11,373 nucleotides of DNA from a virus (lineage: Duplodnaviria; Heunggongvirae; Uroviricota; Caudoviricetes), in IMG/VR virus record IMGVR_UViG_2654587772_000004, positions 1 through 11,373 of that record; one strand, given 5' to 3'. The notes under the pieces were generated by a model, which was not told the origin of the DNA, ran no database searches, and saw only the letters and a program-made list of their open reading frames with translations. Shown here piece by piece: positions 1-11,373 of this stretch. Every line of letters starts with the position of its first letter. Position 1 is the stretch's first letter. A program made the position numbers and the translations under genes.

Positions 1-1158
1 ATGCCGTCTCCACGATTCCGCATCCGCAAAATGACTCTCTCCCGCGCCCTGGACAAATACCTGAAAACCGTCTCCGTACACAAAAAAGGGCACCTTCAGG
101 AGTTTTATCGCGCGAATGTCATCCGACGCTACCCCATCGCACAGCGTTTCATGGACGAAATCACCACCGTGGACATCGCCGCATATCGCGATATGCGACT
201 CGCTGAAATTAATCCCCGGACCGGAAAAGCCATCACCGGCAATACCGTCCGTCTCGAGCTTGCACTGCTCTCGTCGATGTACAACATCGCCCGGGTCGAG
301 TGGGGGACATGCCGGGATAACCCCGTTGAACTGGTGCGTAAGCCCCGTGTCTCTCCGGGACGGGAACGACGTCTGACGTCTTCGGAAGAACGCAGGCTTT
401 CCCGCTATTTTCGTGAACGCAACATGTCCCTGTATGTCGCCTTTCATCTCGCGCTGGAAACCGCCATGCGACAGGGCGAGATTCTGTCACTCCGCTGGGA
501 ACACATTGACCTGCGACATGGTGTGGCTCACCTGCCGGAAACAAAGAACGGGCATTCGCGCGATGTGCCTCTCTCCCGCCGGGCGCGCAACTTCCTCCAG
601 ATGTTGCCTGTGGCGCTGCATGGCGGGGTCTTTTCCTACACCTCTTCCGGCTTCAAAAGCGCCTGGCGCATCGCCACACAGACCCTGCGCATTGAAGACC
701 TGCATTTTCACGACCTGCGCCATGAAGCTATCAGCCGTTTCTTTGAGCTCGGCAGCCTCAACGTGATGGAAATCGCTGCAATATCCGGCCACCGCTCAAT
801 GAATATGCTCAAACGCTACACACATCTCCGTGCCTGGCAGCTGGTCAGCAAGCTGGATGCCCGTCGACGCCAGACGCAGAAGGTGGCCGCCTGGTTTGTT
901 CCTTACCCCGGACACATCACCACTGACGACGGGCAGACAGTGAGAATTGATATCTGCGACTTCGACGACCTGTCCGTGACGGCGGCAACCCGGGAGGAAG
1001 CCCTGTCCCGCGCCAGTGAGGTACTGCTGCGGACACTGGCCATCGCCGCCCAGAAAGGTGAGCGCGTTCCGGCCCCCGGTGCACTCCCCGTCAATGACCC
1101 GGCGTTCGTCATGGTCTGCCCTCTGAATCCGCAGGGTGCCCTGACCGCACAGGTATAA
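1..1158 (+). CDS. Tyrosine-type site-specific recombinase/integrase (385 aa) with a ~110-aa C-terminal extension beyond the catalytic Tyr; size and layout resemble Rci-type (shufflon-specific) recombinases
   Basis: Long ORF starting at window position 1. Box I motif ...[23 protein letters not shown]..., box II ...[42 protein letters not shown]... (His-x-x-Arg and catalytic Tyr). About 110 residues follow the Tyr, which is atypical for lambda/P2/Xer integrases. Rci-like assignment is from memory only. Confidence 0.8.
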
Positions 1159-1176
1159 TGCATAACGCATACAAAG

Positions 1177-1197
1177 AGCGAGTCGCAACGACTCGCT
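1177..1197 (+). terminator. Perfect 9-bp stem / 3-nt loop hairpin (AGCGAGTCG-caa-CGACTCGCT) 19 nt after the recombinase stop; possible terminator or protein-binding dyad
   Basis: Inverted repeat read directly from sequence; no U-tract follows on the + strand, so intrinsic-terminator function is uncertain. Confidence 0.3.
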
Positions 1198-1301
1198 TAA
1201 CACATTCGATCTGCATGATCGAAATTACTCGTTTCACCACAAAAAAATGAATCGGTAAAATAACCTCATGAACTGAAAGATGTTTTTCAGGCGGAGACGT
1301 A

Positions 1302-1670
1302 ATGAAACTGAACACAACCGGCATAGCAGGTCAGCTGATGCTCTCGCTCGACAGAGACGTGATTGCCGAAAAGCTCATCCACGACCGCAGAATCAACCCC
1401 ACGCCGTTGCAGGTCCGCTACCCGCAGGGCGTCCGGGATGTGCTCGTCATGATGAGCGAACAACTGGCGATTTCTGTGGCCGATTTAACCCGTATCCTGC
1501 TTGAGGACACGCTGCACAACATGTTCCTGCCCGCCGGCAATGCCGCCGGTACCGTGGCAGAACGCCTTGAGCTGCTCATGCAGGCACACAACCTCACCGC
1601 GACAGAACTGTCGTCTCTGCTGTCGCCCTGGAATATCCGCGCCTCTGTTCTTCGGGAGCCGGAAAACTGA
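1302..1670 (+). CDS. Hypothetical protein (122 aa as written); the frame would continue to about 1873 (~190 aa) if one A were added to the A4 run at 1663-1666
   Basis: GGAG ribosome-binding site 6 nt upstream of ATG 1302. Stop TGA at 1668-1670 sits just after an AAAA run, and the +1 frame stays open to TAA at 1871-1873. No family recognised from memory. Confidence 0.5.
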   Translation: MKLNTTGIAGQLMLSLDRDVIAEKLIHDRRINPTPLQVRYPQGVRDVLVMMSEQLAISVADLTRILLEDTLHNMFLPAGNAAGTVAERLELLMQAHNLTATELSSLLSPWNIRASVLREPEN

Positions 1671-1867
1671 CAGACTGGCTGTCCCCTGACGCTCTGGGCT
1701 GGCTGGCAGACTGCTTCTGCGTCAGTCCGGACTGGCTGAGCGGGCGGGAAAGTTATCCTGTCGCCCGCGCGGGTGAATGGCCGGACAATGCAAATGCATT
1801 CCGGAAACTCATCAGTGACGAAAAAAATACGGATATTATTTTCTGGCACGGTTTTCCCGTTTGCCGG

Positions 1868-1969
1868 AAATAATGCCAGAGAATATTGCGGTGTGATATT
1901 GCGGCAATGCACACACGTAAATAATGCCAGAATATTCCCGGTACTTTCTTTATTACCGGTGGCAATGAC
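1868..1969. repeat. Imperfect tandem direct repeat (~45-50 bp units, 2 copies) in the intergenic region upstream of the outer-membrane protein gene
   Basis: Unit A 1868-1912 (aaataatgccagagaatattgcgg...gcggcaatgcac) and unit B 1919-1969 (aaataatgccagaatattcccgg...ggtggcaatgacag) share the AAATAATGCCAGA(G)AATATT head and a GGCAATG tail. ATATTnCCGG-like submotifs also occur at 1882, 1896, 1931, 1951 and 2081. Confidence 0.5.
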
Positions 1970-2218
1970 AGAAGAAATTAATTTGTGGTTCTCAGGTGCC
2001 CTGAAAAGCAGGAAGCTGCCTGTGATGCCCCGGGCTGTATCCCTGCGCCCTGCTGCCGCTGAGGCACTCATTGCAGGAAGAATATTACCGGCACTCTGCC
2101 TGAACAGCGATTTATTGCCCTGGTAAAAAAAAACCGGGCAAACCAGCAGTAAAAAAATAATGGCACTTCGTGTCACGGGACTGTGTTGTCTTAAATCCGG
2201 AAAACAGGAAATTAAAAA

Positions 2219-3424
2219 ATGCAGAAAAAATATATTTCGCGCACGCTGATTGCTTCCGCCGTTTTATTTTCTTTTAATGCGATGGCAGCAACTTCATATT
2301 TTGAAGCACGCAATGATTGCAATGGGTGGCACCGGGGTGGCATCCTCCCATTATGGTGTGGCTCCTCTGGCAAACCCGGCTTTACTGACAAAGCACAACA
2401 GCAATGATGATTTCAGCCTGTTACTGCCGTCCGTGGGCGCACAACTGTCAGACCCGAACGACATCGCTAACAAAGCCGATGACATTCAGGACGACTGGGA
2501 TTGCCTTCGACCGCGCGGTCGACAGCAATTACGGTGTTGACCAGGCAGCGGCAAACCTGGAGACAGCGCCTGCTGGAGTTCCGCAATATCCACGCTGATG
2601 CGCAGGTGGGTGTTTCTGCCGTTGCGGCACTGCCGAATGACACGCTGCCGGTTGCCCTGATGGTGAAATCCTACGGTACGGTCAGCGTTGACGGCAAAGT
2701 CAGCGACGCCGATCTGGACTATCTGGAGAAAGTCGCCAACGGCACAATCACGGATGTGGACAAAAACGCGCTCACCTCCCGCGCGTATGGTCGTGCCGCA
2801 GTGGTCACTGATGTGGGTATTTCCTTTGCAAAAGAACTGGAAACCGTCGGTCAGAAATGGTCACTGGGCTTCACCCCCAAATACCAGCGCGTGGACCTGT
2901 TCAACTACAACGTCTCCGTGCGCGATTACGACAGCAGCAACTTTGACGGCGACAAATACCACAACACGAAAAACGGCGTGAACGCCGACATCGGGGCATA
3001 CACCGACCTCGATGACAACTGGACGCTGGGTCTGGTTGCGCAGAACCTCATTTTCCGCGCAGCATCGACACGAAAGTGGTCGACGGCGTGAAGGAACCTA
3101 CAGAATCCGTCCGCAGGCCACTGCCGGTGTGTCCTGGCACAACGACCTGTTCAACCACTGCACTTGATGTTGACCTGACGCCGGCCAGCGGATTCACCTC
3201 CGACAGCAAACGTCAGTTCGCCAGCATCGGCGCAGAATTCAACGCCTGGAAATGGACACAACTGCGTGCCGGTTATCGTCAGAACATGGCGAACAACAGT
3301 GGCAGCGCATTCACGGCAAGGTGTCGGAATTTCACCGTTTGATGTGGTTCACCTGGACATCGCCGGTCTGGTCGGTACTGACCATGACTACGGTGCGATG
3401 GCCCAGCTGCAGTTCACCTTCTGA
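2219..3424 (+). pseudogene. Outer-membrane beta-barrel protein gene (possibly FadL/OmpP1/TodX-like transporter family) disrupted by at least four frameshifts
   Basis: Good ribosome-binding site (AGGAA, 8 nt before ATG 2219). Signal peptide MQKKYISRTLIASAVLFSFNAMA. N-terminal ...VAPLANPALLT (NPA-type hatch motif) and C-terminal ...GAMAQLQFTF ending in Phe, typical of beta-barrel proteins. The reading frame hops between all three + frames (ORFs 2219-2407, 2250-2540, 2404-2598, 2501-3091, 3076-3342, then the frame ending 3424). Family assignment is tentative. Confidence 0.5.
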
Positions 3425-3474
3425 TGAACATGCCCCCCGCTCCCGGGGGTATTCTGCAACTGAACTGACAGTTA

Positions 3475-3926
3475 TGCGTATCCTCAAAAATCGCTTTCAT
3501 CTTGTGCTGGCAGGCGTCTCACTCGCGATCGTGTGTTTCCTGTACTTTTCGGCCCGCCATGTACCGGAAATATCCCCGGATGCCGTGGCCGAACGCAGTC
3601 ACTCCGCCCGTATTCTGATCCTGATTCGACACGGGAGAACGTTGTGACCGCTCCGACAATCCATGCTCAGCCGGCCCTTCCGGCATTACCATTCCCGGTG
3701 CATATCGTGGCGTGGAAATACGGAACACAGTTCAGAAAGCACATACCGTTGTATGCCCTGTACGCCACGGGATACCGTCAGAACAATACAGACAGCCCGT
3801 TACTTTGGCAGACAGGAAGCTCAGGTCATTAAAGCACTGGGATATTGTGATGAACGCCTGCTCCCGCTTCTGAGGTCATTATCAGAAAGCACGCAGGAAG
3901 GCGTTTCCGTTATTTTTCACGCATAA
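3475..3926 (+). pseudogene. ais/pmrG-like periplasmic histidine phosphatase (LPS core heptose(II)-phosphate phosphatase family) gene with about three frameshifts and a 3' truncation
   Basis: N-terminal membrane/signal segment MRILKNRFHLVLAGVSLAIVCFLYF. RHG motif (ILILIRHG) followed, after a 1-nt shift at ~3636, by ERCDRSDNPC...GITIPG, then ...DTVRTIQTARYFG... and ...VSVIFHA in other frames. These match my recollection of E. coli Ais (…FRHAERCDRSTNQC…GITVKG…NTVRTIQSATWF…NIVIFTHNH…). The ORF stops where the homolog would continue for roughly 40 more residues. Confidence 0.55.
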
Positions 3927-4837
3927 TCACAGCCATCGTGTCGGCCAGCACCTGCGCGGTGCGGGTGTAGTTTTCAAAGAGGAACAGCGGGTCATCAGAG
4001 CAGGTACGGTTACCCCAGAAGCGGAAACCGTCGCGGCGAATCAGCGTAGTGACGCCTGACTCATTAAGCAGGTCAGCATCGGTGCCGGACTCCTGCAAAT
4101 CCCAGAATACAGAGGCGCTGATGCCGGTAACACCGTTCACCCCGACGTTGGACAGCGTTTTATGCCAGCCCTGCTCCTGGTCGATTTTAGCGCGCAGACC
4201 CAGCGCACGGGCGGTGGCATACGCGGTGGCGGTGGTACTGGTGACCGTATCCCATGCGAGGAAATCCGGCCAGATGACCATCAGCTCACGCTGGCTGAAA
4301 TTCTGGCGGTAGGCTTTCACCTCGGAAATGGTCTTACAGCCCCATGCGCTGATATATCCGAAAGCGCGCAGCTTCTGACAGACTGATGCCAGTGCAACAG
4401 CCACCTCTTTGGTGTCCAGTCCCGGCACGCCGAGAATACGCGGTTTAACACCGGTAACAGACTCCGCCGCCAGCAGGGCTTTCAGTCCGGTGTACTGACC
4501 GTTTTCGTCGGTGGTGCCGATGATATTGGAAACAGTCTGCGCGAGTTTCGTTTCCTCGTCGTCGCCGGTGCCGTCTTCCACACGCACGACAAACGGTGAC
4601 CGGTTTTGACTGGTCGGCGATGGCCTGCAACGATGCCGCCAGCGTGCCTTTTTTACCGGCCTTTGCAATTGCGCTCTGCACATTGGTAATCAGCACAGGT
4701 TTATTGAGGGGGAAGGTTTCCGCATCCGCATCGCTGGCCGTGCAGACCATGCCGACAATGGCAGTGGATACGGTGGAAATGACGCGGGTGCCGTCGTTAA
4801 TCTCCAGCACCTGCACGCCGTGATGATAGTCACTCAT
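3910..4837 (-). pseudogene. Phage tail sheath protein (P2 gpFI-like), frameshifted at ~4590 and 3'-truncated
   Basis: N-terminal ORF (4445-4837) [57 protein letters not shown]...QSKPVTV is sheath-like. The frame then shifts at an AAA/TTT run (~4590-4592) into ORF 3910-4683 (...[18 protein letters not shown]...[18 protein letters not shown]...). Total about 309 codons versus roughly 390-400 for P2-type sheaths. GGAG ribosome-binding site upstream of the ATG at 4835-4837. Confidence 0.85.
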
Positions 4838-4896
4838 CCGTTTAACTCCGTGGTTAATGGGTGAGTGATATTTTCAGTTGTGCCGGAGATGTCAGG

Positions 4897-5490
4897 CTAT
4901 TTGTCCCGGTTGGCTAAGGGATGACACAATTTATTCTTTATCGCTGATGAGGGAAATTTTTTATAGAGCGTGGACAGGCCAATATCAAAAATCAGTGCCA
5001 CGCGTTGACGTGACTCCCCTGCAGCCAGCAAACGCCCGACCTGCTCCCACTCACTCGTGGTGAGTTTAGGACGTCTGCCACCAATACGACCTTTGGCTCT
5101 GGCCGCTTCCAGCCCGGCCCGAGTCCGTTCGACAATGAGTTCTCGTTCCATTTCAGCCAGGGCACCCATCACATGAAAGAAAAAACGCCCCATCGGCGTG
5201 CTGGTATCAATAGCATCTGTCAGGCTGCGAAAATTAATGCCGCGTTCGCGCAGTTCCTCAACCAGAATGACCAGATGCCGCATACTACGCCCCAGCCTGT
5301 CCAGCTTCCAGACTACCAGAGTGTCACCTGCTGATAATGTTCTGAGCAGTTTTTTCAGCCCCGGTCGGTCGGACTTCGTGCCGCTGATTTTATCCTCAAA
5401 AATCAGCTCACATCCTGCGCACTCGAGCGCGTTACGCTGCAATTCCGTGTTCTGGTCATTTGTTGATACACGAACATAACCTATACGCAT
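4897..5490 (-). CDS. pin: Serine DNA invertase of the Pin/Gin/Cin/Hin family (197 aa)
   Basis: MRIGYVRVSTNDQNT... (catalytic Ser in GYVRVSTNDQ), resolvase core ...LVVWKLDRLGRS..., ...MGRFFFHVMGALAEMERELIVERT..., C-terminal helix-turn-helix ...ALIFDIGLSTLYKKF... Lies next to an invertible tail-fibre segment. AGGGA ribosome-binding site 6 nt upstream of the ATG. Confidence 0.92.
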   Translation of the reverse strand: MRIGYVRVSTNDQNTELQRNALECAGCELIFEDKISGTKSDRPGLKKLLRTLSAGDTLVVWKLDRLGRSMRHLVILVEELRERGINFRSLTDAIDTSTPMGRFFFHVMGALAEMERELIVERTRAGLEAARAKGRIGGRRPKLTTSEWEQVGRLLAAGESRQRVALIFDIGLSTLYKKFPSSAIKNKLCHPLANRDK

Positions 5491-5651
5491 AAAAATCCCT
5501 ATAAAAACAGAATAATGACACAGAATTATCTATATATGTACAAGCGGACAAGGCTATGGAGCTCTCAGTTACAGTAATCTTGCTGGATAAGAATATTTAC
5601 TGATAGTGGATACATAGCCCACTTAGCATTCCCATGTGAAACAAATAAGTA

Positions 5652-5660
5652 TGGTAAGAT
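5652..5660 (+). promoter_or_regulatory. Candidate extended -10 element (TGgTAAGAT) for the 5689-6006 ORF
   Basis: Sequence tatGGTAAGAT about 30 nt upstream of the ATG in an AT-rich stretch; no strong -35 identified. By-eye prediction only. Confidence 0.25.
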
Positions 5661-5688
5661 AGGTTGACCTCAATAAAAGGAAAATCTG

Positions 5689-6006
5689 ATGAACATCGAT
5701 ACCAATAAAAAAACTACCACACTGAAATATTTTGTCGAAGCCTATCCAGAGAGAATCACTGTTCAAGCGTGGGAACGCCTAGTCAATGAAATTGGTGATT
5801 TAAAAGAAGTTTATGGATATATCGCCTTTCTGCATGACGATGGGTATCTTACAGGAAAGGTAATCTTCGATGGTTCTCCTGAAAGTATTGATGGATGGAG
5901 TGTAGATACTGCCTCTCTAAGGATTACATCACAAGGTTATCATTATTGGAAAAAATTAAACCCTACAACACAAGGGAGTAGCGGAATCCTCAGAAGGAAC
6001 AGATAA
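5689..6006 (+). CDS. Hypothetical 105-aa protein of unknown function encoded in an AT-rich insertion (moron) between pin and the invertible segment
   Basis: Intact ORF with AAGGA ribosome-binding site 7 nt upstream of the ATG. Region 5491-6132 is visibly AT-rich (roughly one-third G+C by eye) against >50% G+C flanks. Followed by a 14-bp-stem hairpin. No signal peptide or transmembrane segment. No family recognised from memory. Confidence 0.65.
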   Translation: MNIDTNKKTTTLKYFVEAYPERITVQAWERLVNEIGDLKEVYGYIAFLHDDGYLTGKVIFDGSPESIDGWSVDTASLRITSQGYHYWKKLNPTTQGSSGILRRNR

Positions 6007-6012
6007 CTAATA

Positions 6013-6044
6013 AAGATGGTAGCACCATTTGGTGTTACCATCTT
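6013..6044 (+). terminator. Stem-loop (14-bp stem with one G-U pair, 4-nt loop) 7 nt downstream of the 105-aa ORF stop; putative terminator
   Basis: AAGATGGTAGCACC-attt-GGTGTTACCATCTT read directly from sequence. The downstream tract is A-rich rather than U-rich on the + strand and T-rich on the opposite strand, so it may act bidirectionally or weakly. Confidence 0.4.
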
Positions 6045-6132
6045 AAAATATACCGTTACAATCAGCACTTTCCATTTTTATCTAACAATCAATACTAGGA
6101 CACTCCCTTCTTTCAACATCATATTTAACCGA

Positions 6133-6158
6133 TTCCATAAAACGTTGGTTTGGGAGAA
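6133..6158. promoter_or_regulatory. Left crossover site (hix/gix/pix-like 26-bp site) of the invertible tail-fibre segment
   Basis: TTCCATAAAACG-TT-GGTTTGGGAGAA. Its inner half-site GGTTTGGGAGAA matches the inner half of the right site at 11/12 positions in inverted orientation, and the overall 12-2-12 architecture resembles hixL (TTATCAAAAACC-TT-GGTTTTCAAGAA). Confidence 0.75.
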
Positions 6159-6644
6159 GGTTCTGCGTTGCCTGTTGGCATACCAGTTCCTTGGCCTTCA
6201 GCTACGCCGCCAACAGGCTGGCTGAAATGCAACGGGGCTGCTTTTTCGGCTGAAGAATACCCGGAACTGGCAAAGGCTTACCCGACAAATAAATTGCCTG
6301 ATTTACGTGGTGAGTTTATTCGTGGCTGGGATGACGGGCGGGGGATTGATACAGGTCGCTCTATTTTAAGTATTCAGGGGTATGCAACGGAGGATCATGC
6401 TCATGGATTACCGTCAAGATCCACGATTGTGACTGATGCAACGATTAATTTCTATTTTGATGAAAGCTGGGTAAATAGTGGCACTGACATTATCAAAAGA
6501 GGAAACACAAACGATGCTGGATTACCAGCACCGGATTATGGAACCTTTAAAACATATAAACAATCAGTGGCTGGTTTAGGTGCCGCAGCCTCAGAAACGC
6601 GTCCGCGTAATATTGCATTTAACTATATCGTGAGGGCAGCCTGA
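6147..6644 (+). CDS. Alternative tail-fibre C-terminal variable segment (Sv'-type), promoterless and start-less in the present orientation
   Basis: Open frame begins immediately after the crossover core with no ATG (the ORF track uses TTG at 6150). C-terminus ...AGLGAAASETRPRNIAFNYIVRAA resembles the ends of Mu S / P1 S-type fibres (from memory). After inversion it would fuse in frame to the constant part of H (...AGLLAYLG-LGEGSALPVGIPVPWPSATPPTGW...). Confidence 0.75.
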   Translation, partial: GLGEGSALPVGIPVPWPSATPPTGWLKCNGAAFSAEEYPELAKAYPTNKLPDLRGEFIRGWDDGRGIDTGRSILSIQGYATEDHAHGLPSRSTIVTDATINFYFDESWVNSGTDIIKRGNTNDAGLPAPDYGTFKTYKQSVAGLGAAASETRPRNIAFNYIVRAA

Positions 6645-7246
6645 TGCATAAAGCAATATTAAATAGTGAGCTCATTGCAACAAAGGCAGGGGATGTTACC
6701 GTTTATAACTATGATGGTGAAACACGGGAATATATTTCCACTTCAAATGAATATCTTGCCGTTGGTGTCGGCATTCCGGCATGTTCCTGTTTAGATGCCC
6801 CTGGCACACATAAGGCTGGTTATGCAATCTGCCGTTCTGCAGATTTTAACTCATGGGAATATGTGCCAGACCATCGCGGTGAAACGGTCTATAGCACCGA
6901 AACAGGAGAATCAAAAGAAATCACCGCTCCGGGTGATTACCCTGAAAATACAACCACTATCGCCCCATTAACGCCATATGATAAATGGGATGGTGAGAAA
7001 TGGGTGACGGATACCGAGGCACAGCATAGCGCCGCAGTAGATGCAGCAGAAGCACAGCGCCAGTCGCTGATTGATACTGCAATGGCTTCCATCAGTCTGA
7101 TTCAACTGAAATTGCAGGCCGGACGTAAACTGACGCAGGCAGAAACAACCCGGCTTAACGCTGTGCTGGATTACATTGACGCGGTGACGGCAACAGATAC
7201 CAGCACCGCGCCGGATGTCATCTGGCCTGAACTGCCGGAGGCGTAG
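6644..7246 (+). CDS. Tail-fibre assembly chaperone (Tfa / Mu U-like), partner of the alternative fibre segment
   Basis: 200-aa ORF whose ATG overlaps the upstream stop (TGATG). C-terminus ...LNAVLDYIDAVTATDTSTAPDVIWPELPEA shares the conserved Tfa C-terminal motif with the convergent gene at 7218-7670. Confidence 0.8.
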   Translation: MHKAILNSELIATKAGDVTVYNYDGETREYISTSNEYLAVGVGIPACSCLDAPGTHKAGYAICRSADFNSWEYVPDHRGETVYSTETGESKEITAPGDYPENTTTIAPLTPYDKWDGEKWVTDTEAQHSAAVDAAEAQRQSLIDTAMASISLIQLKLQAGRKLTQAETTRLNAVLDYIDAVTATDTSTAPDVIWPELPEA

Positions 7247-7670
7247 GCCATTCAATATCTGGTGCACTGGAGGTATCAACCAGCTCCAGTGCATCCAGAT
7301 AATCCAGCCACAAATTATATTGCGCCAGTTCCTCACCTTTCAGACGACCAATAGCGGCTTTACCGGGCCATTGCTTACTGTTCATGTATTCGTTGGCCTG
7401 GTTAATTAGTAGCTGTCTTTCTGATTCAGTAATTTCAATAAGCTCTTCATGCGTGGGTGGAGGAATATCTGCCCACGCAGGCAGCCCATCATCTCCGGCA
7501 ATACGGATTTTTCCTTGTGGCGGTTCAGCCATAAACTCACTGATAATATTTTGATTTACTTCCTTAGCGTCTGATAAATCCCATCCCTCTGATTTATATT
7601 TATCAATCATATCCACAGGGAAAAAAGCATTATGCCTTGCGCTATAAACATATTCGTTCATATAAATCAC
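7218..7670 (-). CDS. Tail-fibre assembly chaperone (Tfa / P2 gpG-like), partner of the currently expressed fibre
   Basis: 150-aa ORF directly downstream of the fibre gene on the minus strand. C-terminus ...LWLDYLDALELVDTSSAPDIEWPTPPAVQAR. The 3' ends of the two convergent Tfa genes overlap by 29 bp (7218-7246). Confidence 0.8.
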   Translation of the reverse strand: MIYMNEYVYSARHNAFFPVDMIDKYKSEGWDLSDAKEVNQNIISEFMAEPPQGKIRIAGDDGLPAWADIPPPTHEELIEITESERQLLINQANEYMNSKQWPGKAAIGRLKGEELAQYNLWLDYLDALELVDTSSAPDIEWPTPPAVQAR

Positions 7671-7681
7671 CCTGAATAAAA

Positions 7682-8881
7682 TTACTCACCAACAGCCCAC
7701 CAACTGTAATTCATCGATACCGTGTCGCTGGTTGATGACGTTCTGTAAGCAGAATTAAAGCCGGTTAACGTTGGGCCTTCTGCAGTCATCACGAACCCTC
7801 GCCCAGCGCCTAAAGGCGCACCGCCATCACCAGAATGAGTAAGCATGGCGCAGTCCGCTTTTTTGGGGAAAGGGATGCTGAATGTAATTCTCATTGTTTG
7901 CGTCGATAATGTCGGCGTAACCGCACCACGACCATATTGCAGGATTTTCCCGTTGGGTAATTTCATCCATCCATCACCACTGGCAAAAGAGGCCATGTCC
8001 GGTATCTGATTTTCCCCTGTCCCCACATCCCGTTTTGCCGCTTCTCTCAAACCAAGGTATGCGAGAAGACCAGCTACATCCTTTCCACTCAAATGAGTCA
8101 GCGTCTCATCCAGTGGCTGCTTACCTGACAGCGCATTGTTAATGGTGGTGCTGAATTTCGGGTCATTGTTAATGGCCGCGGCAATTTCTTTCAGTGTGTC
8201 CAGTGTGGCTGGCGCACCGTTAATCAGAGCGGTAATAGCGGCCTGAACAAACTCAGTGGTCGCAATCCGCGTGGTGTTATTTCCTGCGGCAGGCGTCGGC
8301 GCTTTTGGTTCTCCGGTAAATGTCGGATTATGTTTCTGCGCATACTGGGTATGAGGATCCTGTGCGGCAATGTGGTTTCTCATCTGGTCATCCACATACA
8401 GCTTTAATTCCAGGACTTCATCATCCACGTATTTACGGGTCGCCAGTACCACCGACGGGTCGATTTTCAGCGTGATAGCTTCGGTATTCGTGACAACCAG
8501 AATCATGCGGATAGTCTGGGTACGACCACTGCCTTCCTGCAACTGCGGTTTGTACGTTTCCGGGCAGTTCGCCACCGCAATGAGTACGCCTTCATCATCA
8601 TAAAGCCCAATCTCACGGATCCAGAATCCGCCCTCGTTCTCAGGGATGATTTGCTCCGCAATAATCTGGCTCTGGTTGTTCGGGTCAACACTCAGAAGAT
8701 TCAGCGGCGCGATGCGTTTCTGGTTAATCAGTTTTGTCTGTGCCGGGTCTGGTGTCGGCAAGACACCATTCGCATCACCAACGGCCATTTGCGTCAGATT
8801 CAGCTTACTGCCGAGCATCGTCGCGTTAGCCAGCCGTGCTGCGCCCTGATTAGTCAGAATGGCGTAGTATTTCACTGTCAT
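7682..8881 (-). CDS. Phage tail fibre protein (P2 gpH-like), 399 aa; constant N-terminal part (~275 aa) plus the currently joined variable C-terminal part
   Basis: Lies between the baseplate gene and the Tfa gene in the canonical P2 order. Its ATG overlaps the upstream gene's stop (ATGA). Contains the right crossover site at codons ~272-280 (...AGLLAYLGLREAAKRD...). Confidence 0.85.
   Translation of the reverse strand: MTVKYYAILTNQGAARLANATMLGSKLNLTQMAVGDANGVLPTPDPAQTKLINQKRIAPLNLLSVDPNNQSQIIAEQIIPENEGGFWIREIGLYDDEGVLIAVANCPETYKPQLQEGSGRTQTIRMILVVTNTEAITLKIDPSVVLATRKYVDDEVLELKLYVDDQMRNHIAAQDPHTQYAQKHNPTFTGEPKAPTPAAGNNTTRIATTEFVQAAITALINGAPATLDTLKEIAAAINNDPKFSTTINNALSGKQPLDETLTHLSGKDVAGLLAYLGLREAAKRDVGTGENQIPDMASFASGDGWMKLPNGKILQYGRGAVTPTLSTQTMRITFSIPFPKKADCAMLTHSGDGGAPLGAGRGFVMTAEGPTLTGFNSAYRTSSTSDTVSMNYSWWAVGE
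8042..8067. promoter_or_regulatory. Right crossover site of the invertible segment, located inside the tail-fibre gene
   Basis: Top strand TTCTCTCAAACC-AA-GGTATGCGAGAA; bottom strand TTCTCGCATACC-TT-GGTTTGAGAGAA. Shares the core dinucleotide and the conserved inner half-site with the left site. Confidence 0.75.
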
Positions 8882-9489
8882 GCGTTTACTCTCAGGTTAT
8901 CAATTAAATGAATGGCCGAGGCCGGGAAATAATCCCCTCCGACAATAATGGCCTCCGGGGTGTAGGGATAAACCGTCAGGGCGTCGCCGTGATAGCATCC
9001 CGCACCGGCAAAAATGTTGCCGGTTGTACTTAAACTGATAGCCAGTCCCGTCAGATGGCGGCTCGCCGGTTTTGCATCAGCAACGAGGCGCTCCAGCTCC
9101 TGATACATTTCTTCGGTAATACCCTGCTCAAGCACGCCAACAACGATACGGAACGTCCCCGGCTCCTCGTTGAGCTGCCACCACTCCCTCACCTCAATCA
9201 GATAGCCGAGCGGCTCCACCACACGCCGGATTGCACCTATAGTGCCTTTATGACAGTGAATGAAATACGCATCGCGGATAACAGCGCGTTTTGTCGCTTC
9301 CGGCCACTTATCATCCCAGCGGTCAACCGAAAATGACCACGCCAGCCACGGCAGCAGATTTGCCTGGCAGGTATCCGGGTTCCACAGTTCACGAATACTG
9401 ACCGGCGTTTTTTCAATTTCCGCACAGGCTTTTGCGGCGGCGACTTCAAGCGGTGATGAGCCGGTCGGCAGCAGGCGCGAATCACTCAT
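8878..9489 (-). CDS. Phage baseplate protein, P2 gpI-like (203 aa)
   Basis: MSDSRLLPTGSSPLEVAAAKACAEIEKTPVSIRELWNPDTCQANLLPWLAWSFSVDRWDDKWPEATKRAVIRDAYFIHCHKGT... matches my recollection of P2 gpI; synteny J-I-H; translationally coupled to H. Confidence 0.85.
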   Translation of the reverse strand: MSDSRLLPTGSSPLEVAAAKACAEIEKTPVSIRELWNPDTCQANLLPWLAWSFSVDRWDDKWPEATKRAVIRDAYFIHCHKGTIGAIRRVVEPLGYLIEVREWWQLNEEPGTFRIVVGVLEQGITEEMYQELERLVADAKPASRHLTGLAISLSTTGNIFAGAGCYHGDALTVYPYTPEAIIVGGDYFPASAIHLIDNLRVNA

Positions 9490-10389
9490 CCGAGCCTCCG
9501 GTCACGACGCGGTATTCGGTGCAGAAAGACGCCTGCGTGCTGTTAAGCACGATATCGGCCAGCGGTGCAGCCAGTTCGACACGCTGCACGCCTTCCACAT
9601 GCAAAGCGGCATAAATGGCAGACAGACGGATGTCGCGCCCCAGCCGGTGCTGTGCCGTGACGTACGCTTCCAGTTTTTTCACGGCGGCGGCGCGGATGGG
9701 TTCGCTTTCGGGACCAGGGTAAAGGTAAAGCGTGGCGTTTATCTGGTATTCAACGATGGCGGCAGACTGCACGGTCACGCGGTCGGCCACCGGCCTGACG
9801 TCCTCGCCATTAAGGGCGTTACGCACCACCGCCAGCAGGTCTTCGGATGCGACACCGTTATTTTCACGTGACAGCACAGAGATGGTGACGCAGGCCGGAG
9901 AAGGACTGGTGACAGAGATATCCGCGACACGCCCGTCGGCACTTCGACCATGATACTGATAGGCCCCACCGACCCGGCGACGCTTAAACCTTCAAACGCC
10001 TGCTGAATACGCAGACGATAATCGGTGTCAGACTCCATCACTGCCGGTGTCGGCGGGATAGTCGAATCATCTGCCGGGGTGATAATCAGGCGCGTGGTGT
10101 TGTAATTGGCACCAATCACATCAAGGTCATTACCGGCGGCACAGGCCAGCATCACCGCCCGTGCGGCCTCATTCACACGCTGACGCCAGATAAGCTCACG
10201 ATAAGCATTTTCCTCCAGCAGTTTGACGAGAGGCTCGGATTCCAGCGTCAGGGTACGGGCGACCGCCTCCTGCTGGTCTTCCGGGTAAAGGGAAATCAGT
10301 GTCGCCTTGCGTTCGGCAAGAATGGTTTCAAAGTCCAGCTCCTCGACCACATCCGGTGCGGGTAGCTGGTTCAGGTCGATAATCGGCAT
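9482..10389 (-). pseudogene. Phage baseplate assembly protein J (P2 gpJ-like), split by a single-nucleotide frameshift in a G/C run at ~9964-9967
   Basis: N-terminal ORF 9775-10389 (MPIIDLNQLPAPDVVEELDFETILAERKATLISLYPEDQQ...SVAGSVG) and C-terminal ORF 9482-9877 (...SRENNGVASEDLLAVVRNALNGEDVRPV...YRVVTGGSDE) are both gpJ-like. In the +1 frame across the junction the sequence reads GAYQYHGRSADGRVADISV..., so adding one G to the GGGG run would restore a single ORF. Confidence 0.8.
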
Positions 10390-10393
10390 GGTT

Positions 10394-10741
10394 TCAACTC
10401 ACAGGGATGGTTAACGAAAGTGGCTGGCCGGTGTCGTTGTGCTGGCCGGTTAACGTGACCGTCATTCGCCCGTCAAAACTGCGCTCAGTGGTGACGGATG
10501 ACAGGGTGACGCGGGGTTCCCATTTCAGCACCGCCATGTAACAGGCGACCTTAATCTGCAACTCAAGCGCCGGGGTCTGCGGCTGGTCAATCATTGACTC
10601 CAGCAACGAGCCGTAATCACGACGCATCACCCGTGAGCCGACCGGTGTGCGCAGGATATCGCCGATACTCTGGCTGATATGCTCAAGGTCAGTGACAGTC
10701 AGGCCATCACTGCGATTCATTCCGAGATAACGCGCTGTCAT
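10394..10741 (-). CDS. Phage baseplate wedge protein, P2 gpW / T4 gp25-like (115 aa)
   Basis: Size, position between V and J, and sequence (MTARYLGMNRSDGLTVTDLEHISQSIGDILRTPVGSRVMRRDYGSLLESMIDQP...) typical of gpW. Start overlaps the stop of V (ATGA). Confidence 0.85.
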   Translation of the reverse strand: MTARYLGMNRSDGLTVTDLEHISQSIGDILRTPVGSRVMRRDYGSLLESMIDQPQTPALELQIKVACYMAVLKWEPRVTLSSVTTERSFDGRMTVTLTGQHNDTGQPLSLTIPVS

Positions 10742-11373
10742 AGAGGACTCCCGGTTGTGCCGCCGCTGTCGCCGGGGTGTTTATGGGTATGCAGTACCTT
10801 ACCGTTTGATGAGAGTTCACCGCCGGTGTGTTCAATGTTGCCGCGCATCGTCCCGCCCTTCTGCACTTCCAGCGTGCCGGTAATCAGCCTGTTGGTGCAG
10901 ACCACCTCCGGTGTGTCCAGGGTGACGCGGGTTGATGCTTTCACCGTGACCACCGGCACCGTGGCAGTAACAGAATCAGAAGCCGTCACGCTGGCCGTTT
11001 TAATTCCGCTTACCGTGAGTGCACTGGTTTCGGGTTCATACTCAATCACCGCCCCGTCAGGGAAACGGATATGCAGGGCATCCGCCGACGCAGACGGCGC
11101 GGGGTTATCGCCGGAATAAATCCCCGGCAGAACAAACGCCGTGTCAAGTTCACCGCCCACGGCCAGAATCAGCACCTGCTCCCCCACGGAAGGTGCCCAC
11201 CATGTGCGCGAACGCCCGGCACGACAGGTCAGCCACTGAAGCCAGTCGGTGCACATGCCGCCGGTCTGCACACGGCAGCGACCGGCGTTAAGGTCGGTTT
11301 CGATGATAATGCCGGTGCGAATCATGTTGCGCAGTGCGCGCGCGAGTTCCTGAATATTTGCGAGAGTGTTCAT
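10738..11373 (-). CDS. Phage baseplate assembly/spike protein, P2 gpV-like (211 aa)
   Basis: Full ORF whose ATG is the last three bases of the window (reverse strand). Sequence (MNTLANIQELARALRNMIRTGIIIETDLNAGRCRVQTGGMCTDWLQWL...) and position upstream of W fit gpV. Confidence 0.85.
   Translation of the reverse strand: MNTLANIQELARALRNMIRTGIIIETDLNAGRCRVQTGGMCTDWLQWLTCRAGRSRTWWAPSVGEQVLILAVGGELDTAFVLPGIYSGDNPAPSASADALHIRFPDGAVIEYEPETSALTVSGIKTASVTASDSVTATVPVVTVKASTRVTLDTPEVVCTNRLITGTLEVQKGGTMRGNIEHTGGELSSNGKVLHTHKHPGDSGGTTGSPL

Follow-up and report, generated by a model that had tools for sequence, protein, structure and literature searches.

Gene content of the locus

The window analyzed here (the whole stretch of 11,373 nucleotides) contains a set of plasmid genes followed by a part of a P2-like prophage. 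The plasmid part (positions 1-3929) encompasses an intact open reading frame for a tyrosine recombinase that almost certainly is the shufflon-specific recombinase gene rci (1-1158, + strand), traE (1302-2126, +), traF (2219-3418, +) and the 5' part of traG, which encodes a histidine phosphatase and is severed at the boundary with the prophage (3466-3929, +). The prophage part (3930-11373) includes a partial tail sheath gene, a serine invertase gene, tail-fibre genes, gpI, gpJ, gpW and gpV. The boundary between the two (3929/3930) is abrupt and is located inside the tail sheath gene. It had been suggested originally that the recombinase belongs to an element other than the one that carries the P2-type tail genes, and this agrees with the identity of its neighbours within window 1-3929, namely traE, traF and the truncated traG.

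The serine invertase (4897-5490, - strand) is of the Pin/Gin/Cin type, with Resolvase and HTH_7 domains, and represents a second, unrelated inversion system in the same window. Candidate inverted crossover sites for this system (AAACGTTGGTTTGGGAGAAG and ATACCTTGGTTTGAGAGAAG, matching in 17 of 20 positions) are found near 6140-6160 and 8040-8060, on either side of a segment with alternative tail-fibre C-termini and two assembly genes of the Caudo_TAP type; these sites were identified by a core-motif search and were missed by the default repeat search. Between the invertase gene and the invertible tail-fibre segment, there is a low-GC (38%) open reading frame encoding a 105-aa protein (5689-6006, +) that has no Pfam match and is annotated as hypothetical in RefSeq. 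Just past the end of the window, the ST2747 chromosome (L003 13545-15447) contains an annotated Pycsar-type defence pair, an adenylate/guanylate cyclase and an effector, which in this P2-like prophage has gpV on one side and the virion morphogenesis gene on the other.

Identity and domain architecture of the recombinase

Rci and the shufflon have been under study since the 1980s and are now employed in synthetic biology as a shuffling tool. The open reading frame in question starts with the ATG at window position 1 and encodes a protein of 385 aa. It shares 87% identity with the shufflon-specific recombinase of the IncI1 type; the canonical comparator for the R64-type Rci was the gene of an IncI-gamma/K1 plasmid that is annotated 'Shufflon-specific DNA recombinase'. 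A gene identical to that in the window is present on plasmid NZ_CP055049, which is typed as IncK2/Z, MOBP. The NCBIfam collection has no Rci-specific model, and the only matches in it are to Xer and invertase models, far under the cutoff. We assign the open reading frame at 1-1158, with near certainty, to rci, the gene for the Rci recombinase of an I-complex (IncK2/Z-type) conjugative plasmid. The Rci-like identity proposed from the sequence alone is thereby upheld by the 87% identity to the IncI1-type enzyme, and the gene encodes an already known, textbook plasmid recombinase of the Rci type, not a new one.

Three domains can be delineated in the protein with the help of AlphaFold2 (AF2) models for which a 21-sequence family alignment served as the input. 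The N-terminal, helical core-binding domain (approximately residues 13-111; window 37-333, + strand) is indicated by the AF2 helices, by the Foldseek comparison and by a weak Pfam match to Int_N (residues 50-114). The catalytic domain (residues 124-277; window 370-831, +) corresponds to the Pfam family Phage_integrase (PF00589, E 2.7e-24) and contains R157, K182, H237, R240, H264 and Y273, all of which are invariant across the 21-sequence alignment A2. A Foldseek search with the model retrieves the core plus catalytic domains of lambda Int and Tn1549 Int, as well as the catalytic domain of P2 Int, and the best match among PDB sequences is the HP1 integrase (E 1.5e-4). An arm-binding domain is absent, given that the first element of the model is the helical core-binding domain, which starts at residue 13.

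The catalytic tyrosine is residue 273 and is followed by 112 residues in an intact open reading frame, in good agreement with the original estimate of an extension of about 110 residues. In the full-length AF2 model (mean pLDDT 81), the core-binding domain (13-111) and the catalytic domain are followed by a low-confidence linker (281-286) and a compact domain with a beta-beta-beta-alpha-beta arrangement (302-372). We denote this region (approximately residues 299-375; window 895-1125, +), which has the fold of the HicB N-terminal domain (see below), the Rci-specific C-terminal domain.

Plasmid context and distribution

With window 1-2400 as the query, megablast finds 852 matching places, distributed over 796 of the 5426 complete E. 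coli genomes; 847 of these places are plasmid-borne. The two full-length, near-identical matches display the gene order pil operon, pilV, rci, traE, traF, traG and dot/icm-type T4SS, with the upstream neighbour of rci annotated as "shufflon system ... pilus tip adhesin PilV". The exact protein look-up returned 77 blocks of contigs, and all eight contexts that were examined contain the pil operon, a gene for PilV with the Pfam Shufflon_N domain directly upstream of rci, and then traE, traF, traG and the dot/icm-type T4SS. Among the loci that encode exactly this protein, PilV is 444, 447, 459, 467 or 485 aa long. Three plasmid records are at least 99% identical to the Rci of the window and 1239 fall into the 80-90% identity band; the window Rci is the allele typical of the rarer IncK2/Z-type lineage. 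The next band, at about 75% identity, consists mostly of plasmids of about 53-65 kb.

Neither pilV nor the shufflon nor any sfx site is present inside the window, which opens at the rci ATG, and it is because of this starting point that rci appears here apart from its shufflon. Judging from the eight other loci that encode an identical protein, all of which possess them, sfx sites and pilV are very likely to be present upstream in the source.

Target sites and natural rearrangement of the shufflon

In published descriptions (PMC11852207, PMC4176322), an sfx site comprises a core of 7 bp that is followed by a conserved right arm of 12 bp and preceded by a left arm of variable sequence. A search for sfx-like repeats in related loci, of the kind that had been proposed along with the original prediction, detects two to six sites in each of the eight exact-protein loci, with the 19-bp form GTGCCAA(T/C)CCGGTNNNTGG, and in all eight a distance of 55 bp separates the end of the last site from the rci ATG that follows it. 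Since this position is constant, the true targets of the recombinase should lie immediately 5' of window position 1; in the source contig, an sfx site on the + strand, CCANNNACCGGATTGGCAC, is expected 55 bp before the window ATG. The 13-mer GTGCCAATCCGGT is represented by four copies in L002 and eight copies in L001, in alternating orientation, which form clusters at the pilV 3' end and directly ahead of rci. This 13-mer is absent from the window, and a search of the window for the sfx core together with the right arm, allowing up to three mismatches, gives three matches compared to 4.35 expected by chance. The earlier proposal that the recombinase might act on sites outside the visible DNA fits the canonical sfx that directly precede the ATG in each of the complete loci.

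Comparison of the exact-protein loci reveals inversions and permutations, the breakpoints of which fall on sfx sites. For example, the segment 9407-9946 of L007 is inverted in L009 (99.8% identity), and L012 contains the same segments as L007 and L009 in another order and orientation. Just two sfx sites are found in L014, a state that is compatible with occasional loss of segments. The differences between these loci, with which the PilV lengths given above vary in accordance, are natural, comparative evidence that the shufflon served by this Rci allele rearranges, and we infer from them that the allele is active in inversion.

The C-terminal domain of Rci and the HicB fold

According to PMC11852207 and PMC4482086, Rci contains an additional C-terminal domain that Cre, XerC/D, HP1 and lambda Int lack. 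In these sources, asymmetric sfx recombination is described as requiring the C-terminal domain of Rci, on the basis of the R64 work (Gyohda et al., 2006, cited in PMC4482086), and cooperative binding that limits Rci to inversions is thought to be mediated by this domain.

The AF2 model of the last 109 residues alone has a mean pLDDT of 79, with values of 87-93 in the core blocks, and the whole C-terminal part can be aligned with the IncI1-type Rci and with 20 family members. When the domain is compared as a single sequence with the PDB sequences using phmmer, there is no meaningful match, and HicB is reached by the family profile only. A profile of 28 diverse Rci-family C-terminal domains matches E. 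coli HicB (6u0i and 6hpb, E 2-3e-6) and, over the same N-terminal domain, S. pneumoniae HicB (E 0.002). The HicB models of Pfam recurrently match the C-terminal region of Rci as well, in all cases below the threshold. We show that the C-terminal domain of Rci has a fold like that of the HicB N-terminal domain. A phmmer search against 1.84 billion representatives reveals no stand-alone relatives of the domain at that sensitivity; it returns Rci-like proteins, their fragments and two large repetitive proteins that look spurious.

Two sets of isolated sequences related to this domain were also observed. The first is a fragment of the Rci C-terminal region in NZ_CP007394 (L006 2510-2724), which PGAP annotates as a pseudogene and labels 'type II toxin-antitoxin system HicB family antitoxin'; the label is an annotation artefact, in agreement with the fold result. 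The second set comes from other E. coli plasmids, in which short stretches that carry no annotation (matches H65-H67) have 47-52% identity to residues 275-339 or 337-385 of Rci; these could represent either remnants of the Rci C-terminal region or independent copies of it.

The C-terminal domain of Rci is not a toxin-antitoxin component. Assignment to the HicB antitoxins of type II toxin-antitoxin systems was considered and rejected: the likeness is confined to the fold of the N-terminal domain, the domain is fused to a recombinase, the Pfam HicB matches are sub-threshold, and no HicA gene, whether by annotation or by Pfam match, is located beside rci in any context examined. A plausible origin of the HicB-like part is a fusion of domains that took place long ago, in the progenitor of the Rci family, and is thus a matter of evolution and not of artefact. 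We put at roughly even the chances that this is an exapted N-terminal domain of a HicB antitoxin, that is, a case of true homology and not of fold convergence, which senses sfx asymmetry or links protomers to each other, with the result that productive synapsis is restricted to inverted sites. In the searchable open-access literature, we found no published link between HicB and Rci, but annotation pipelines already give a hint of it, and structure or domain databases may record one; the HicB-like domain is only a mildly new element and makes for a modest structural note.

Alternative assignments of the gene, its extension and its targets

Several alternatives to this assignment have to be considered, the first of which is that the gene belongs to the neighbouring P2-like prophage, or to some other integrative element, as its integrase and that an att site is located at the window edge. 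Rci has been placed within the IntP2 subgroup of tyrosine recombinases, from which it differs by the loss of the arm-binding domain (PMC8138268), the catalytic domains of the HP1 and P2 integrases are among the sequence and structure matches, and P2-type tail genes fill the window from 3930 to 11373. These similarities notwithstanding, the gene is followed by the plasmid transfer genes traE, traF and truncated traG, which end abruptly at 3929, nearly all its E. coli matches are plasmid-borne as indicated above, the protein lacks the arm-binding domain, and in the RefSeq chromosome of the same strain an intact P2-like prophage adjoins yegQ/ogrK and has no such recombinase beside its tail genes. 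The assignment to P2-type prophage integrases is therefore rejected, with only a minute probability left to it; the gene is identical to a plasmid rci gene, and the protein is 87% identical to an annotated Rci. The original contrast between Rci and P2-type integrases holds with respect to architecture and function but not as a statement of phylogenetic remoteness, in view of the placement in the IntP2 subgroup and of HP1 as the top PDB match.

The extension could, in principle, be a separate small gene, for example, for a HicB-type antitoxin, that only an error in the frame or in sequencing has joined to the recombinase. Many single-base indel errors do occur further downstream in the window, the domain is HicB-like, and the PGAP label in NZ_CP007394 points in the same direction. 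Against this, the DNA of window 1-1158 shows zero differences from the WP_025211037.1 gene in two independent records, L001 and L002, and the fused architecture, with a length of 374-390 aa, is retained by distant homologues and across thousands of plasmids: at a query coverage of at least 80%, it is found in 2214 plasmid records, and the fusion is in frame in homologues with identity down to about 30%. Besides, no gene that is annotated as HicA or matches it in Pfam is found next to rci in the contexts examined, and the C-terminal DNA-binding half of HicB is missing. Because the DNA is identical in the two independent records and the fusion is conserved among homologues, we conclude that the C-terminal extension is not the product of a frame error, which had been named at the outset as a way in which the Rci reading could fail and which now appears exceedingly improbable.

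A third alternative concerns the targets of the enzyme, for which repeats containing ATATTnCCGG were put forward originally as a speculative candidate. The motif, ATATTNCCGG, is indeed over-represented, with 13 matches in the window at no more than one mismatch compared to 2.4 expected and with a cluster at 1864-2091, where two 17-nt repeat copies are 88% alike. The best copies are, however, direct and not inverted, are devoid of the sfx core and right arm, and are located within the traE coding sequence, where they encode the peptide RIFPVL or RILPAL in the traE frame. In the IncI1-type traE, the repeat is conserved as a peptide and not as DNA, and the repeat region is collinear across all loci compared. 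Given their direct orientation, their location in a coding region and the missing sfx core, the repeats are not Rci sites; the probability that Rci acts on them (1864-2091) is negligible, and the sfx sites upstream of the rci ATG are retained as the targets.

The plasmid-prophage junction and sequence errors

The boundary at 3929/3930 truncates both traG and the sheath gene: the alignment with L002 ends at window position 3929, within the CDS at L002 15466-16044. There is no IS or transposase-like ORF at this position, and no genome among the complete RefSeq E. coli genomes spans it. In the chromosome of E. coli ST2747, from which the prophage part of the window differs by two single-base indels only, the sheath gene is complete, the prophage adjoins yegQ/ogrK, and no such recombinase is found beside the tail genes. 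Two RefSeq assemblies of ST2747 include the plasmid segment in the "chromosome", with abrupt junctions that differ from the present one (at positions equivalent to window 3842 and 934) and with triplicated pil regions.

Between window 1-3842 and the ST2747 RefSeq sequence, there are 14 differences, all of which are single-base homopolymer indels, with 0 substitutions. The indels relative to the RefSeq copies map to 1658, 1852, 2125, 2317, 2501, 2559, 3051-3052, 3094, 3153, 3318, 3444, 3633, 3709, 3769, 4591 and 9963, and rci has none. Their density is about 5 per kb over 1159-3842 vs about 0.3 per kb in the prophage part, and the genes that they frameshift are traE (at 1658 and 1852), traF (which contains several), the truncated traG, the sheath gene and gpJ. 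These homopolymer indels explain why traE and traF look frameshifted, and the frameshifts in the tra genes are sequencing indels, not biology.

The juxtaposition of plasmid and prophage is, in our assessment, most probably an assembly chimera, given that the junction cuts two genes, that no RefSeq genome spans it, that the junctions vary among the ST2747 assemblies and that the differences are all homopolymer indels. The competing interpretation is that a plasmid segment is truly integrated within the chromosomal P2-like prophage, so that the junction is biological and rci is orphaned from the plasmid functions. This interpretation can draw on the contiguity of the window as given and on the ST2747 assemblies that place I-complex plasmid sequence in the 'chromosome'; the same assemblies, with their other abrupt junctions and triplicated pil regions, speak against it, as do the severed genes, the lack of an IS or transposase-like ORF at the site, the lack of a complete RefSeq E. 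coli genome that spans it, the exclusive presence of homopolymer indels and the difficulty of assembling shufflons, which is documented in PMC5430464. True integration accordingly appears improbable; if the junction were real, this copy of rci might be stranded. Under the chimera interpretation, the window is a mixture of two unrelated mobile elements, probably caused by misassembly, and the targets of Rci are to be sought upstream.

Proposed mechanism

In the native locus, rci lies directly downstream of pilV and the shufflon, and Rci would recombine inverted pairs of sfx sites, in which the 7-bp core GTGCCAA and the conserved right arm (T/C)CCGGTNNNTGG are combined with a left arm that is not conserved. 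The segments that are inverted and permuted in this process encode alternative C-termini of PilV, the adhesin at the tip of the thin pilus, and switching of the PilV tip alters recipient specificity in liquid mating. The 112 residues that follow the catalytic tyrosine are predicted to form a flexible linker and a compact alpha/beta domain. This HicB-like domain, which would be situated just behind the Tyr helix, might function as a module for protein-protein or nucleic-acid contacts, and its predicted placement is in the region where tyrosine recombinases make contacts in trans. We infer that the domain might enforce inversion-only behaviour through contacts of this kind, and it could guide the mutagenesis of Rci toward inversion-only tools.

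Comparison with known systems

The closest known system is that of the IncI1/R64-type plasmids, with which the present locus shares the gene order pilV, shufflon, rci, traE and traF. The Rci of that type is 384 aa long, compared to 385 aa here, and the 87% identity extends over the full length of the protein, including the C-terminal domain; the differences include a divergent extreme C-terminus and, in the C-terminal domain, small indels that affect its first strands. The sfx sites have the same core and right arm, GTGCCAATCCGGTNNNTGG. The same three-domain architecture, at 62-75% identity, is found in the plasmid homologues of the band around 75% (about 53-65 kb) and in chromosomal homologues from Salmonella and Pectobacterium, which share with the window protein the C-terminal motif FVPYPA...DF..L.V.A.T.E.A...A...LLR.LA.AA..GERVP.PG.

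In the P2 and HP1 integrases of the IntP2 subgroup, the catalytic domain is related to that of Rci, whereas the N-terminal arm-binding domain of these enzymes is missing in Rci, which possesses the extra C-terminal domain instead; in terms of function, Rci catalyzes inversion between sfx sites, in contrast to integration and excision at att sites by the P2 and HP1 integrases. The HicB antitoxins are stand-alone proteins encoded next to hicA that combine an N-terminal, HicA-binding domain (UPF0150/TTHA0281-like) with a C-terminal RHH or HTH DNA-binding domain. In Rci, the domain that resembles the N-terminal one is fused behind the catalytic domain of a recombinase, without the C-terminal DNA-binding half or the toxin-antitoxin function and, in the contexts examined, without a HicA partner gene by annotation or Pfam match.
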